DNA of 64,000 nt from Gammaproteobacteria bacterium (GTDB lineage Bacteria > Pseudomonadota > Gammaproteobacteria > UBA4575): the NCBI GenBank assembly GCA_965221955.1, contig CBDCTA010000002.1:64001-128000 (forward strand), in the 5' to 3' direction. The stretch's first letter is position 1. Each line of letters opens with the position of its first letter. This document shows, piece by piece, positions 17,087 to 64,000 of the stretch. The translations under genes were made by a program, and so were the position numbers. Below the pieces are notes generated by a model. It saw only the letters and a list, made by a program, of their open reading frames with translations, searched no databases and was not told the origin of the DNA.

Positions 17087-18451
17087 ATGGATAATGAGCT
17101 GGCTAGCTTAGGTGTCATCTTCACAGAATTTTATTACTGGCTTACAGTAGTGATAATGTTTCTTATACATGTAGGTTTTTGCATGTATGAAGTTGCCGTT
17201 TCAAGGCACAAAAATCATATGCATACTTTAATGAAGAACACCATGGTAATCCCATTGGTGACAATCACTTTTTTCTTTTTTGGGTGGTGGATATATTTCG
17301 CATTTCCAAATGGCCCTGGAATTATTGGCGGATTAATTGATGCCCCACATGCAAAAGGATGGAGTCAATTAATGGGACCACATATGGGAGGAAGTGGTGA
17401 TCCTGATGGTTGGGCACGCATTAATGGAGTGTTTTGGGCAGCTTTTCTTTTGTTTTCGTGGACAGCAGCATCGATAGTATCCGGTTCGGTAATAGAAAGA
17501 ATACGTTCAAATGCATTCTGGTTACTTGCAGTATTAATTGGATCTGTATTTTGGATTATTGATGCCGCTTGGGGTTGGCATGCAGATGGTTGGATGGTAA
17601 AGCTGTTGGGCTATCACGACGCTTATGCATCTGGAGTTATCCATGCTATTGCAGGAGGTTTTGCATTAGGTATTTTATTTGTATTGGGGCCGCGAATTGG
17701 GAAGTTTAGAGAAGATGGCACGCCGCGGGTCATCCATCCACGAAATCCTTGGCTCTATACTATTGGTCTTTTTATTCTGTATACAGGATTTTGGGGCTTT
17801 TATGTGGCATGCAACATTCCAATGTGGGACATTCAAAGTGGTGATGGTGTATTTTATTCAGCAACTAATATTTATTTAGCACCCACAACACTTTCTGCTA
17901 TCACTGTTAATTTTTTAATGTCACTTTCGGGTGGCTTATTGATGGGATACATTGTTTCTAAAGGCGATGCATATTGGACATATTCTGCTGGCCTGGCTGG
18001 AATTATTGCAGCGTCTGCAGGAAATGATTTATATCACCCAATACAAGCACTACTAGTTTCAGCTGCTGGTGTCTTCGTTATCTATAAATTACATTACTGG
18101 GTTGAAAGTAAATTTAAAATTGATGATGCAGTAGGTGCAGTAGCAGTTCATGGCTATGCAGGGTTCTATGGAGTGGTGATTGCAGGATTTATTTTATGGG
18201 GATATCCATCATCCCCAAATCCTGAATATGCGAGTGTTAACCCCCTAGGTCAATTTATAGGAGCACTAATAATGTTTGGACTCCTTGGGTTTCTACCTGG
18301 TTGGATATTTGCCAAAATTTTAAATACGTTTGGAGTCTTACGAATTCCTAGAGAGATTGAGTTAATTGGACTTGATACTGCCGAGAATATTCAACGTTTG
18401 AAGGATGAGCAAGAAATTCTAAAAGCTGAACATGAAGCGATAAACAAATAA
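17087..18451 (+). CDS. amt: Divergent Amt-family (methyl)ammonium transporter
   Basis: GF.MYE, IVSG...ER, HD...SGVIH, LGPRIGKF, DDAVGAVAVHG; GGAGG RBS before ATG 17087. Confidence 0.9.
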   Translation: MDNELASLGVIFTEFYYWLTVVIMFLIHVGFCMYEVAVSRHKNHMHTLMKNTMVIPLVTITFFFFGWWIYFAFPNGPGIIGGLIDAPHAKGWSQLMGPHMGGSGDPDGWARINGVFWAAFLLFSWTAASIVSGSVIERIRSNAFWLLAVLIGSVFWIIDAAWGWHADGWMVKLLGYHDAYASGVIHAIAGGFALGILFVLGPRIGKFREDGTPRVIHPRNPWLYTIGLFILYTGFWGFYVACNIPMWDIQSGDGVFYSATNIYLAPTTLSAITVNFLMSLSGGLLMGYIVSKGDAYWTYSAGLAGIIAASAGNDLYHPIQALLVSAAGVFVIYKLHYWVESKFKIDDAVGAVAVHGYAGFYGVVIAGFILWGYPSSPNPEYASVNPLGQFIGALIMFGLLGFLPGWIFAKILNTFGVLRIPREIELIGLDTAENIQRLKDEQEILKAEHEAINK

Positions 18452-18487
18452 AGTTTTATAATAGATAAAAATCAATAAGGAGACTTT

Positions 18488-18721
18488 ATGTCTACGGGTA
18501 ATTTTGAAAATTGGGCGGGTGAGATCAGTGAAATCGGTGCAATTTATCCATTTGTAGGTTCAGAATTCATTCTTTGGCTTATAGGAATTGGTTTATGGAT
18601 AGTTTGGCATGTTGTTCAATATCGAACTGAAAATAGACAATATGAAGATCAGCACAAAAAGCTTGGCAGCCCGGATACAATAAAACAGCTTCTTGATGTA
18701 GAGAATCCGGAGCAATTCTAG
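18488..18721 (+). CDS. Small single-TM protein downstream of amt
   Basis: AAGGAG RBS; IG.IYPF.GSE followed by a TM helix ending WIVWH. Confidence 0.75.
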   Translation: MSTGNFENWAGEISEIGAIYPFVGSEFILWLIGIGLWIVWHVVQYRTENRQYEDQHKKLGSPDTIKQLLDVENPEQF

Positions 18722-19398
18722 CTACATAATTTTTAATATATTATCTATTCTACTCGTAGTGTATGGTCTAAGTATGTCTTGGATTTCAGCTGCAGTGGTA
18801 TTAATTAAATCTATCGAAATGTCACCATGTCCTTGTAATATAAACAGACAATCATTTGTGTCTGTTGTAGTTTTGGTTTTATCGCATTGTCGACAATCAA
18901 GTCTGCACAGAATTTCGTTATCATCGTCGATGTAACAATATTCACCTTTATTAATACTGTTGTGGTTTATTTCTTCCCTAAGGGGATGAATTGTTCGTCA
19001 CCGTTTGTAAAACAAAGTCTCACATTTCCACTGATATGCTTTATATCATGAGCACCGATAGAGATTCTGTTCTTAATTGCAACGTAATTATAAATATCTA
19101 CTAGAAAATTAATGGGTCTCAAAGATTTATGTTTATATAGAATCCTTATTAAACTTTCTGGTGAAGCTAATAATGTTTTATCAGTAATACCAATAGTTTC
19201 ATGTAACTTTCTATATCCTGATATTTTCGGATCACATTCTAAGTTTTCAAGTGTATGATCGTATAATAATTGTGCGTAGAAGCTTTCAATCTTGTTCCGT
19301 ATGTTTTCATCGTGAGTATCGTTTTCAATTCCATGGATTAGTAGAAATGCAACCTTTATCCCTAATGCAGAAACATCATCACATATTTTAAAATTCAT
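18722..19398 (-). pseudogene. B3/4 (PheRS-beta editing-like) domain gene split by a frameshift
   Basis: ORF 19398-18967 (SPESL, INFLVDIYN, GAHD, F.PLG) continues in another frame as GEYCYIDDDNEILCRLDCRQCDKTK..QG to TAG at 18722. Confidence 0.8.
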
Positions 19399-19424
19399 AG
19401 AATAAATACGTGTTTAAGTTAAGC

Positions 19425-20081
19425 CTAAATTGGGAACATATTTAATAGAGTAGTTGATGAATAAAGCATTTTCATTCCTACTAAAATGGCTAGAGCACCT
19501 GTAAAAACTTTAAAATATTTAAAAGGTATAAATTTAATTTTACGATGCAAAGGCATCGTCATAAGAATAGAAAGGAAAGACATGCAGATAATCAAGCCAA
19601 TACTAAATAAAACAATATAAGTAAACTTTAAATAAATTGAATCAATCGTTGTGGTAAGAAGCGCAACTATTAAACCAGAACCTGCTGCGCCGTGTAATAA
19701 ACCAATACTTAGAGACTTTAAGGTGAGCCGCGTTTTATTGTTATCTTCTATAACCGTGTTTGTCGAATATTTATTTTCTTTTGTAGAAAAAAGGATTTTG
19801 GCTTTTTTAATCACATCGATTCCCATCCAGACAAGTACAGCACCTACTAAAAGCTCAAAAAAGACGAAGACACTTTTATCAATTTCAATCTGTAAACCCA
19901 TCAAAATCATACTGAAGAGTAATAATGTAATTGTATGACCAATTCCCCATATGGCGCCTTGCTTAGCAGTGGCAGATACCGAATTAGATTCTGTAGAAAC
20001 CATTAATACAGCTGCAATATGATCTGGTTCGAAGGCATGACGGATGCCTAAGGTAATGGCTAAGAGTAGTAAGACAGTCAT
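19425..20081 (-). CDS. Nickel transporter-like urease accessory protein (UreH/NiCoT-like)
   Basis: RHAFEPDH, WGIGHT and GLLHGAAGSG motifs; last gene of the urease cluster. Confidence 0.82.
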   Translation of the reverse strand: MTVLLLLAITLGIRHAFEPDHIAAVLMVSTESNSVSATAKQGAIWGIGHTITLLLFSMILMGLQIEIDKSVFVFFELLVGAVLVWMGIDVIKKAKILFSTKENKYSTNTVIEDNNKTRLTLKSLSIGLLHGAAGSGLIVALLTTTIDSIYLKFTYIVLFSIGLIICMSFLSILMTMPLHRKIKFIPFKYFKVFTGALAILVGMKMLYSSTTLLNMFPI

Positions 20082-20088
20082 ATGCTTT

Positions 20089-63055: not shown

Positions 63056-63111
63056 TACCTGTAATTTCAGGTTGTTATAAGAGTGCAAATACTATACAGG
63101 AGAATGACTTC

Positions 63112-63140
63112 TTGACGTATTCAATAAATTAGTCTAAAAA
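63112..63140 (+). promoter_or_regulatory. Candidate sigma70 promoter for the amiE leader
   Basis: TTGACG-N17-TAAAAA upstream of the hairpins. Confidence 0.45.
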
Positions 63141-63177
63141 GTTATGTAACACATAGCATTCTAGCTAGGTAGAGTTT

Positions 63178-63227
63178 AGCAGAACCAATAATGCTTCTGT
63201 TATAAATGAGAATGGGCAAAAAAGCCC
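63178..63227 (+). promoter_or_regulatory. ANTAR-type dual hexaloop RNA element
   Basis: AGCAGAACC-AATAAT-GCTTCTGTT and GGGC-AAAAAA-GCCC; the second overlaps the terminator 5' arm. Confidence 0.7.
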
Positions 63228-63259
63228 TCACGGATTTATATGTCCGTGAGGGCTTTTTT
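63218..63259 (+). terminator. Intrinsic terminator/attenuator in the amiE leader
   Basis: AAAAAAGCCCTCACGGA-TTTATATG-TCCGTGAGGGCTTTTTT. Confidence 0.92.
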
Positions 63260-63394
63260 GTGCGTGTGACAAAAACAATTATTAGTAGTTGACCGAAAAC
63301 CAAACTAGTTTGAAGTTATATTTTTTGTTCATAAAAAAATGTCGTTTTATGTCTGATCTTAAAAAAAGATATGAAGTGACGAGGAGGATAAAAT

Positions 63395-64000
63395 ATGTAT
63401 CACGGTGATATATCAAGTAGTAAAGATGCAGTAGGCGTTGCAGTAGTAAATTACAAAATGCCTCGGATGCATACTAAAGCAGAAGTTCTCGATAATGCAC
63501 GCAATATTGCGGAAATGATCGAGGGTATGAAAGTTGGATTACCTGGAATGGATCTCGTCATATTTCCTGAGTACAGTACTCATGGAATTATGTATGACGA
63601 GACAGAGATGTATGAAACTGCATCCAGTTGTCCAGGTGAAGAAACTGAAATTTTTGCAGAGGCGTGCCGCAATGCAAAAGTATGGGGTGTGTTTTCACTC
63701 ACAGGAGAGCGTCATGAGGAACACCCAAATAAAGCTCCCTATAACACATTAATTTTGATGAATGATCAGGGTGAAATTGTACAAAAGTATCGAAAGATTA
63801 TGCCTTGGGTGCCTATTGAAGGTTGGTATCCTGGAAATTGCACTTACGTTTCAGAAGGGCCAAAAGGGTTAAAGATAAGTTTAATCATTTGTGATGATGG
63901 AAACTATCCAGAAATTTGGCGAGATTGCGCAATGAAAGGTGCTGAACTTATCGTACGTTGTCAAGGATATATGTATCCGTCAAAAGATCAGCAGATCATG
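63395..64000 (+). CDS. amiE: Aliphatic amidase (partial, runs off the window; absent from the ORF track)
   Basis: [51 protein letters not shown], catalytic ICDDGNYPE. Confidence 0.95.

Follow-up and report, generated by a model that had tools for sequence, protein, structure and literature searches.

A composite island for small C–N compounds with a putative methylamine funnel into the N-methylglutamate pathway in a UBA4575 gammaproteobacterium

Bacterial Ni-urease is a textbook enzyme and is regarded as essentially urea-specific. The FmdDEF system of Methylophilus and the cyanobacterial UrtABCDE system are what we take to be the described ATP-binding cassette (ABC) importers of urea and short-chain amides. 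Within the N-methylglutamate (NMG) pathway, GmaS and Mgs act on methylamine and not on ammonia, as established for the family (accessible text of PMC10781810). The dimethylformamidase (DMFase) of Paracoccus has its best kcat/Km on N-methylformamide and is inactive on urea and acetamide, according to the accessible part of PMC7686228. The amiEBCRS genes of Pseudomonas aeruginosa and plasmid amiCR-ABC-amiE acetamidase operons are also known (PMC13209695, available sections). Relatives of these systems lie together in one island in a 64,000-nt stretch of DNA (the window) from a gammaproteobacterial genome of the GTDB lineage UBA4575 (GenBank assembly GCA_965221955.1, contig CBDCTA010000002.1, positions 64,001–128,000). 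The elements at issue are a urease-like Ni enzyme with an altered pocket, a DMFase-like pair and a full NMG gene set. Below, G numbers denote the genomes compared, with the source genome as G000, and L numbers denote loci.

The chance is put at about even that this is a composite, modular island for small C–N compounds with a methylamine funnel into the NMG pathway; both the substrates and the contact between regulator and operator are predicted from sequence. An UrtA-like periplasmic sensor protein would act through a hybrid kinase and a LuxR-type regulator to switch on two operator-bearing operons, those of the ABC importer and the DMFase-like enzyme. The latter, a two-subunit Fe-dependent enzyme, would most likely split small N-alkylformamides, N-methylformamide first, into formate and methylamine. 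The variant Ni-urease would most likely accept N-methylated urea(s), giving methylamine and carbamate, and the methylamine would then be oxidised by GmaS, MgsABC and MgdABCD. The original prediction had drawn most of the island into such a funnel. Co-occurrence and gene strings support this for the UreC clade and the DMFase-like pair; the amidase AmiE, a glutamate-synthase-like (Glt) set, an Amt transporter and a promoter motif said to link mgs with the ure/glt divergon have dropped out of it.

A bolder claim is put forward tentatively and stands clearly short of even. The variant would be the first urease-family Ni enzyme for N-methylated urea(s) rather than urea, joined by the DMFase-like enzyme as a co-funnel into the NMG pathway, served by its own sensor and importer, and spread by transfer between methylotrophs and marine heterotrophs over at least four phyla or classes. 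If true, the chemistry of the urease family would be broadened by a large, conserved clade with a remodelled pocket that coexists with ordinary ureases and has ties to methylamine genes. Methylated ureas and formamides in the dissolved organic nitrogen of the sea and of plant surfaces would gain a named sink, and pipelines and surveys that equate ureC with urea use would be miscounting the variant clade. Every part comes from known families; what is new is that the urease clade is remodelled and that its partnership with the other modules is conserved. The open-access literature searched contained no account of the variant clade or of its tie to gmaS, no paper linking the clade to the NMG pathway or to methylurea, and no case of a urease-family enzyme hydrolysing methylurea in bacteria.

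The variant urease and its tie to gmaS

The urease operon, ureE-ureF-ureAB(fused)-ureC-ureG-ureD, occupies 20089–25103 on the minus strand, with ureC at 21546–23258. It was assigned by Pfam and NCBIfam scans that covered 41 open reading frames (ORFs) between 17075 and 64000, with a laxer scan for eight short or unassigned ORFs. The fused gamma/beta subunit and the accessory proteins UreD, UreE, UreF and UreG are all present. A small B3_4-domain protein and a NicO-like Ni/Co transporter (18967–20120, minus strand, the transporter at 19425–20120; Pfam matches) are syntenic with ureD in G010, G013 and G019.

UreC aligns with its Klebsiella aerogenes counterpart at 686 bits; K. aerogenes residue numbers were counted on this alignment. 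The Ni-ligand set (H134, H136, K217, H246, H272 and D360) is kept, as are the catalytic and flap residues H219, D221, C319, H320 and R336, and also M364; we take the ligands to be four His, one Asp and a carbamylated Lys, and the other roles to be as in known ureases. What UreC lacks is the urea pocket of canonical ureases, defined by A167, A363, an HxHF/WICPQQ segment and a loop. Both A167 and A363 are replaced by Gly, HVHFDSAQL stands in place of HIHWICPQQ after the first two Ni ligands, and the pocket loop is three residues shorter (17 vs 20 letters). Gly at both Ala positions together with the shortened loop would fit room for an N-methyl group. Comparison of 107 sequences, 90 of them variant and 17 canonical, gives 58 positions that tell the clades apart, concentrated in two pocket segments. 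In window numbering, they include A365G, and new Asp residues appear in the pocket segments at I143D and N172D.

Among 40 relatives, variant UreC is present in 10 genomes, including the source (at least 93% identity), and the canonical type in 16 (56–59%). The pocket motifs separate the two groups perfectly, in 10/10 variant and 16/16 canonical sequences; G013, G015 and G024 hold both urease types. The variant motifs also occur in all of the best 120 of 7994 database matches (84–98% identity). The perfect split among relatives, the best database matches and the 58 positions mark the altered pocket as a clade character and not a one-gene oddity; the altered pocket of the original prediction is confirmed. 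A scan of species-representative genomes yielded 80 loci at 75–99% identity, from Methylobacterium, Methylorubrum, many other Alphaproteobacteria, Methylophaga, Arenicellales and Burkholderiales, and also from two metagenome-assembled genomes (MAGs), one Chloroflexota and one Nakamurella, and from a contig filed under Oceanobacillus. Cultured carriers are found among Methylorubrum and Methylobacterium and include Amorphus coralli, Paracoccus limosus and Pontibaca salina. In 400 other genomes drawn evenly from the phylum (the phylum sample), urease occurs in 123 and the variant type in only three (76–80% identity; next best 58%), all of which also hold a canonical urease.

The clade is closely associated with gmaS. 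In family f1 (25 genomes, including the source), gmaS is found in all 10 genomes with variant UreC and in three of the other 15. In an independent alphaproteobacterial genus, g134 (121 genomes around G267), gmaS occurs in 63 genomes, variant UreC in 32 and a DMFase-like ortholog in 17, and these sets are perfectly nested (17 within 32 within 63); gmaS is thus carried by 32/32 genomes with the variant vs 31/89 without it. Twenty further variant-urease genomes were picked from the 80 loci to span the named taxa, their gmaS status being unknown beforehand: with the threshold unchanged, a gmaS ortholog is present in 15 (61–72% identity), two have a weak or broken one and three have none, Methylophaga (best match 44%) among them. 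In the phylum sample, gmaS was found in 34/400 genomes and in two of the three variant carriers, G097 being without it. As a control, gmaS is present in 30 of the 123 urease-bearing genomes of that sample (24%); in none of these 30 do canonical ureC and gmaS lie less than 2 Mb apart on one contig, and 27 of the pairs are on different contigs.

The association extends to gene order. In the Chloroflexota MAG (L084), gmaS-mgdABCD-ureF(AB)CGD are contiguous and co-directional, with a gap of 36 nt between mgdD and ureF and a DMFase-like gene 4.5 kb further on. In G498, of genus g134, a single co-directional string reads HTHcupin-mgsA-B-C-gmaS-ureE-F-AB-C-G-D, and in two gammaproteobacterial MAGs (L057, L058) ureE directly follows gmaS. 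G267 has a contiguous series of the ABC importer, kinase, regulator, dmfS, dmfL, a Rieske-like gene, a Sel1 gene, a small ORF and the variant ure operon. Since GmaS and Mgs handle methylamine and not ammonia, a urease operon strung together with gmaS or mgs is most simply read as encoding a methylamine-releasing hydrolase.

Some loci of the clade have an unusual arrangement. In the Burkholderiales MAG (L112), variant and canonical urease clusters are adjacent and come after amiCR-ABC-amiE. L066 has a second ureC match at 68% identity on the opposite strand; its own UreC reads HFDSAAL. In L089 (Sneathiellaceae MAG) and L097 (Marinibaculum pumilum), a variant-type UreC of 77–78% identity has only a UreD-like gene adjacent; no ureAB, E, F or G was detected within 10 kb, and a soxB/D/A-like set (32–46% identity) lies downstream. 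On the contig filed under Oceanobacillus sp. (L101) there is a proteobacterial-type cluster, amiCR-ABC-ure(variant)-amiE; the assembly from which it derives has more than 290 contigs and is possibly mixed.

The DMFase-like pair, its operator and the NMG module

The large subunit of the DMFase-like enzyme is encoded at 35070–37469 (minus strand; PF20254, DMFA2_C, 289.7 bits) and the small subunit, of 149 amino acids (aa), at 37536–37985 on the same strand. The large subunit aligns end to end with chain A of the Paracoccus DMFase structure 6LVB (511 bits) and keeps the Fe ligands Y399, Y440 and E521, together with H519, the putative base E657 and the pocket-constricting F693; positions were counted on the alignment, with residues as named in the accessible text of PMC7686228. 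Taken alone, the 149-aa protein gives an insignificant match to the small subunit in the PDB (E = 0.73); a profile of six upstream ORFs from the source and other genomes matches 6LVB chain B over nearly the full length (E = 2e-11). Both the DMFA2_C domain with its 2-Tyr-1-Glu Fe site and the upstream small subunit of about 15 kDa are therefore in place.

A second DMFase pair is found in some relatives, namely G019 (L019:15595–18315) and G013 (L025:7765–10466), with a small subunit of 121 or 113 aa and a large one of 773 aa. It adjoins a SnoaL-like gene and a Liv-type ABC system and lies between the urease and the main dmf module. This second pair is closer to the Paracoccus enzyme (598 bits), so that the pair in the window represents a distinct subfamily.

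DMFase-like orthologs occur in 10 genomes of family f1, of which 10/10 have gmaS and 8/10 have variant UreC; in the 17 genomes of g134 that hold one, gmaS and variant UreC are both present in 17/17. The phylum sample contains DMFA2_C homologs in seven genomes, six with gmaS. The co-occurrence analysis suggested with the original prediction accordingly ties the UreC clade and the DMFase-like pair to gmaS in several unrelated lineages and leaves out the Glt set, which is found at none of the 80 variant-urease loci. DmfA-type proteins and AmiE have been detected in open-ocean metaproteomes (PMC9477243, accessible text).

A predicted palindromic operator, CTTATGGCCATAAG, lies upstream of dmfS at 38131–38144 (0 mismatches). 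A second copy, CATATGGCCATAAG, with one mismatch and an imperfect third half-site pair adjacent, is located at 43678–43691 in the divergon between urtA1 and the response regulator gene. Both are contained in a longer common block, TATTGACC-N12-TATGATTCACT. The chance expectation for the 14-bp palindrome is 0.01, and two matches were reached in 0/100 shuffles; at up to three mismatches the matches are not above chance (4 vs 3.3 expected), so only those with at most one mismatch count. The palindrome is kept at the dmf and ABC promoters in 3/3 relatives (G010, G013, G019), and the shared dmf/ABC motif proposed earlier thus holds. A related inverted repeat precedes the urease operon in G010 and G013. 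The adjacent LuxR-type regulator is the obvious candidate for binding the operator.

The motif proposed for the mgs promoter and the ure/glt divergon did not hold up: only GTTTATTGA and TAATATTTTTT are common to the two, and they are AT-rich and at chance level. Exact matches among 16 intergenic regions reach at most 13 letters, within the null maxima of 11–15 obtained from 20 shuffles. The block of the mgs promoter that is well conserved in relatives is absent from the ure/glt divergon. The sigma-54 consensus gave four matches vs 4.5 expected, and an Rfam scan of the entire window gave 0 matches, hence no riboswitch or ANTAR-target family.

The NMG module, mgdDCBA, gmaS and mgsCBA, lies at 48360–58083 on the minus strand (TIGR03105 at 678 bits against a cut-off of 470), with gmaS at 53688–54995 and mgdB, a SoxD ORF, at 52024–52311. 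An HTH-cupin regulator gene on the same strand (58240–58911) accompanies it. All eight genes of the predicted set (gmaS, mgsA/B/C and mgdA/B/C/D) were recovered. Neither FMO-type Tmm nor Tdm was found above the cut-off in G000, and Dmm genes were not searched for; with no FMO-type Tmm or Tdm, monomethylamine would be the usable product. Two pairs of listed ORFs overlap, 55100–56524 with 56448–57134 by 77 bases and, where the Glt set begins, 25423–25824 with 25775–26758 by 50 bases. Since alignments to relatives begin 19–29 residues in, mgsC and the GATase gene probably start further downstream than their first start codon.

Transport, sensing and other modules of the island

The source genome, from an uncultured marine bacterium, comprises 2.69 Mb in 29 contigs and is 96.6% complete; the GC content of the window is about 37%. 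The contexts of the relatives G010, G013 and G019 (78–100 kb) were compared by tblastn with the window proteins: gene order is preserved, yet modules have been gained and lost. Every gene class named in the original prediction was recovered by the Pfam and NCBIfam scans, including its three uptake systems, a divergent Amt, a Urt-like ABC importer and a UT channel.

The Urt-like importer, urtA1-B-C-D-E (38499–43529, minus strand), is the sole Urt-type ABC system of the source genome. UrtB, UrtC, UrtD and UrtE are above their NCBIfam cut-offs; the binding proteins are not of UrtA rank, as UrtA1 (319.8 bits) and a second UrtA-like protein, SBP2 (283.3 bits), fall below the cut-off of 492.75. Among solved structures UrtA1 matches 8TG1 best (257 bits); urea-binding proteins (215) and AmiC (162) come after it. 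The sensor set, a LuxR-type response regulator (plus strand), a hybrid histidine kinase and SBP2 (both minus strand), extends over 44034–48216 and is syntenic in relatives; in L090, SBP2 and the kinase adjoin the variant urease. The Amt-family transporter (17075–18451, plus strand) is very divergent (PF00909 at 185.6 bits; TIGR00836 at 179 against a cut-off of 343; best solved relative at 86 bits) and retains the twin histidines. It is missing from all three relative contexts (G010, G013, G019) and adjacent in one related MAG (L091), so it is not a conserved part of the system. The region 58963–61124 encodes a HAD type II hydrolase, a conserved 107-aa ORF and the UT-family urea channel (60267–61124).

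The genes amiC, amiR and amiE (Peripla_BP_5, AmiR_N with ANTAR, and NF009802, respectively) lie at 61293–64000 on the plus strand, amiE being cut by the window end. AmiE, 344 aa at full length, scores 446.5 bits against NF009802 (cut-off 427) on its first 202 residues, and the AmiC sensor and AmiR ANTAR regulator of AmiE operons stand beside it. The island extends beyond the window, where amiE gives way to genes for an AmiB-like AAA_5/CbbQ_C protein, a VWA protein and an acetyl-CoA synthetase (ACS), and these to housekeeping genes. As AmiE passes the aliphatic-amidase equivalog cut-off and precedes AmiB-like, VWA and ACS genes, it looks like part of a standard acetamide module; the release of methylamine that had been proposed for it is not supported. 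This amiC-amiR-amiE-amiB-ACS unit is an ordinary module that often travels with the variant urease clade.

In the region 25423–31226 (plus strand; Pfam and NCBIfam), a SnoaL-like protein is followed by the Glt set, made up of a class-II GATase, a GXGXG–FMN fusion and an 842-aa GltD-like FAD/FeS subunit (28698–31226). A C-terminal part of about 340 aa in the last resembles part of the glutamate-synthase FMN barrel. The set had been described as a second Mgs-like triplet, and it is 34–38% identical to mgsA/B/C. An N-methylglutamate synthase, however, has three parts (GATase, GXGXG, FMN) and lacks a pyridine-nucleotide reductase subunit; this set has a GltD-like FAD/FeS subunit and a fusion of GXGXG with FMN. 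Proteins of the 842-aa architecture are widespread (at least 120 clusters at 62–91% identity, one covering 68% of the query), with generic names in the clusters (glutamate synthase, FAD-dependent oxidoreductase), and the architecture is apparently uncharacterised; a canonical gltBD-like pair is located elsewhere in the source genome. The GltD-like subunit, the widespread architecture, the gltBD pair elsewhere and the absence from all 80 variant-urease loci point to a glutamate-synthase-type addition rather than a second Mgs, and tblastn showed the set to be missing from the G013 context as well. The Glt set and the Amt transporter are lineage-specific additions.

Four conserved genes of less familiar kinds lie at 31265–34940 (minus strand). 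Their products are a membrane-anchored protein of 456 aa, a small one of about 90 aa (its listed ORF has 133 aa), one with Sel1 repeats and one that is Rieske-like (33753–34940). The group is syntenic with dmf in G010, G013, G019 and G267, and in L090 and L124 it adjoins the variant urease. In the Rieske/ring-hydroxylase-like protein, an invariant FNKAQHGGCRAVPxQCxTGxKTxCSFTxCG takes the place of CxH...CxxH in Gamma- and Alphaproteobacteria; the motif is atypical (HGGC...C...C-x4-C) and the C-terminal half poorly conserved. An N-demethylase role was considered for this protein and rejected, as neither CxH...CxxH nor a 2-His-1-carboxylate site is recognisable and the C-terminal half is so poorly conserved.

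Genes in the first 17 kb of the window bear no relation to the island. A sortase adjoins a VIT/VWA protein at 4592–7280, a pairing that we take to be typical of a marine proteobacterial sortase system, and an ORF with a Rap1a immunity-protein domain is located at 11738–12151.

Rival readings and comparison with described systems

Several observations weigh against the methylamine funnel, and most of them also favour a generic nitrogen-scavenging island, in which the variant would be a true urease induced through AmiC/AmiR or the two-component system and the DMFase-like enzyme, AmiE and the NMG pathway would be independent modules for alternative nitrogen sources, brought together because versatile scavengers accumulate them and because islands pass on as blocks. 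This explanation is possible, at a probability well short of even. At 821 bits UreC exceeds the cut-off of 680 for the urease equivalog TIGR01792, its catalytic residues are intact, and UT and Urt-type ABC genes are close by; in G001 (L053) the UT gene is directly upstream of the variant ure operon. Given the equivalog score and the UT channel in the island, plain urea may be the main substrate of the variant. The variant is moreover the sole urease in 7/10 variant-carrying family genomes, where it may therefore have to serve ordinary ureolysis. The operator was not found upstream of ure in the window. Modules move independently: the NMG module is missing at the island position in G010, with gmaS 110 kb distant, and the Glt set is missing in G013. 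Canonical-urease genomes are already enriched in gmaS (30/123 vs 34/400 overall). Kin do not count as independent cases, and the 32/32 of g134 may reflect one clade. There are exceptions to the gmaS tie: G097, L112 (Burkholderiales), L090 (Kiloniellaceae) and Methylophaga lack a clear gmaS, and in two more genomes it is weak or broken. PMC5017803, in its accessible text, treats the additional urease copies of the M. extorquens-like group of Methylobacterium, which has a complete NMG pathway, as conventional. A generic island leaves unexplained why the pocket change is fixed over a clade at 68–100% identity, why canonical urease coexists with the variant in six genomes and even adjacently in L112, and why gmaS is carried by 75–100% of variant genomes vs 24% of urease-bearing genomes generally. 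Nor does it account for gmaS and mgs, which serve methylamine and not ammonia, being contiguous and co-directional with ure in three phyla/classes when canonical ureC was near gmaS in 0/30.

The counts of neighbours raise a different doubt. At the 80 variant-urease loci, at least 14 kb of sequence being available for 58, the commonest neighbours within 10 kb are the Urt-like ABC importer (30), amiC with amiR (27) and amiE at 80% identity or more (23), vs six loci with NMG genes, two with DMFase-like genes and two with the Rieske-like/Sel1/small-ORF group. In G097, amiR-amiC is divergent from ABC-ureEF(AB)CGD and amiE is absent. Such surroundings, together with the new pocket residues I143D and N172D, would suit an enzyme for some other small non-urea substrate (for example formamide, acetamide, hydroxyurea, semicarbazide or a charged compound of the amidine or guanidine type) with an indirect tie to gmaS. 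We consider this unlikely: the mgs-gmaS-ure strings would be unexplained, AmiE already handles short aliphatic amides, and no guanidine or other riboswitch appeared in the Rfam scan of the window. Less probable still is that the DMFase-like pair has nothing to do with the urease and serves to detoxify or catabolise N,N-dimethylformamide of human origin, as happens in degraders among Paracoccus and Methylobacterium. The homology to the solved DMFase is clear and all catalytic residues are kept; the paralog of the relatives is nonetheless closer to the Paracoccus enzyme (598 vs 511 bits), and no Tmm/Tdm route was found, Dmm not having been searched for. In G267 the pair also forms a contiguous stretch with the variant urease, it is nested in variant-urease genomes (17/17 in g134), and DmfA-type proteins are reported from open-ocean metaproteomes (PMC9477243, accessible text).

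Compared with described systems, the variant urease shares the metal ligands, flap residues and UreDEFG of K. aerogenes UreABC/UreDEFG and the gamma/beta fusion of the Helicobacter type, with a Ni transporter present in addition. It differs in A167G and A363G, in DSAQ for ICPQ, in the loop shorter by three residues and in the 58 clade-specific positions. Its gene order is E-F-AB-C-G-D, and the clade is partnered by amiCR/ABC/amiE and gmaS, not by Ntr-type urea regulons. The DMFase-like pair is like the enzyme of Paracoccus sp. DMF (6LVB) in its two subunits, Fe(III) ligands, H519, E657 and F693. It differs in its lower score (511 bits vs 598 for the relatives' paralog), in a small subunit recognisable only by profile and in being embedded among a Urt-like ABC importer, a two-component system, Rieske-like, Sel1 and small unknown genes and the variant urease.

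The importer resembles FmdDEF/UrtABCDE in UrtB–E, which exceed the equivalog cut-offs; it differs in a binding protein below the UrtA cut-off, and its control presumably runs through an SBP-dependent hybrid kinase together with a LuxR-type regulator. The amidase module has amiC, amiR, amiE and the AmiB-like AAA protein in common with P. aeruginosa amiEBCRS and the plasmid operons, and in many relatives the ABC importer as well. No amiS was found in the stretch examined, UT and ACS genes are adjacent, and the module is often joined to the variant urease cluster. The NMG module has all eight genes and the HTH-cupin regulator of the pathway in Methylobacterium, Methylocella and marine Roseobacters; unlike these, it is set here inside an amide/urea island, and in other lineages it is contiguous and co-directional with the urease operon.

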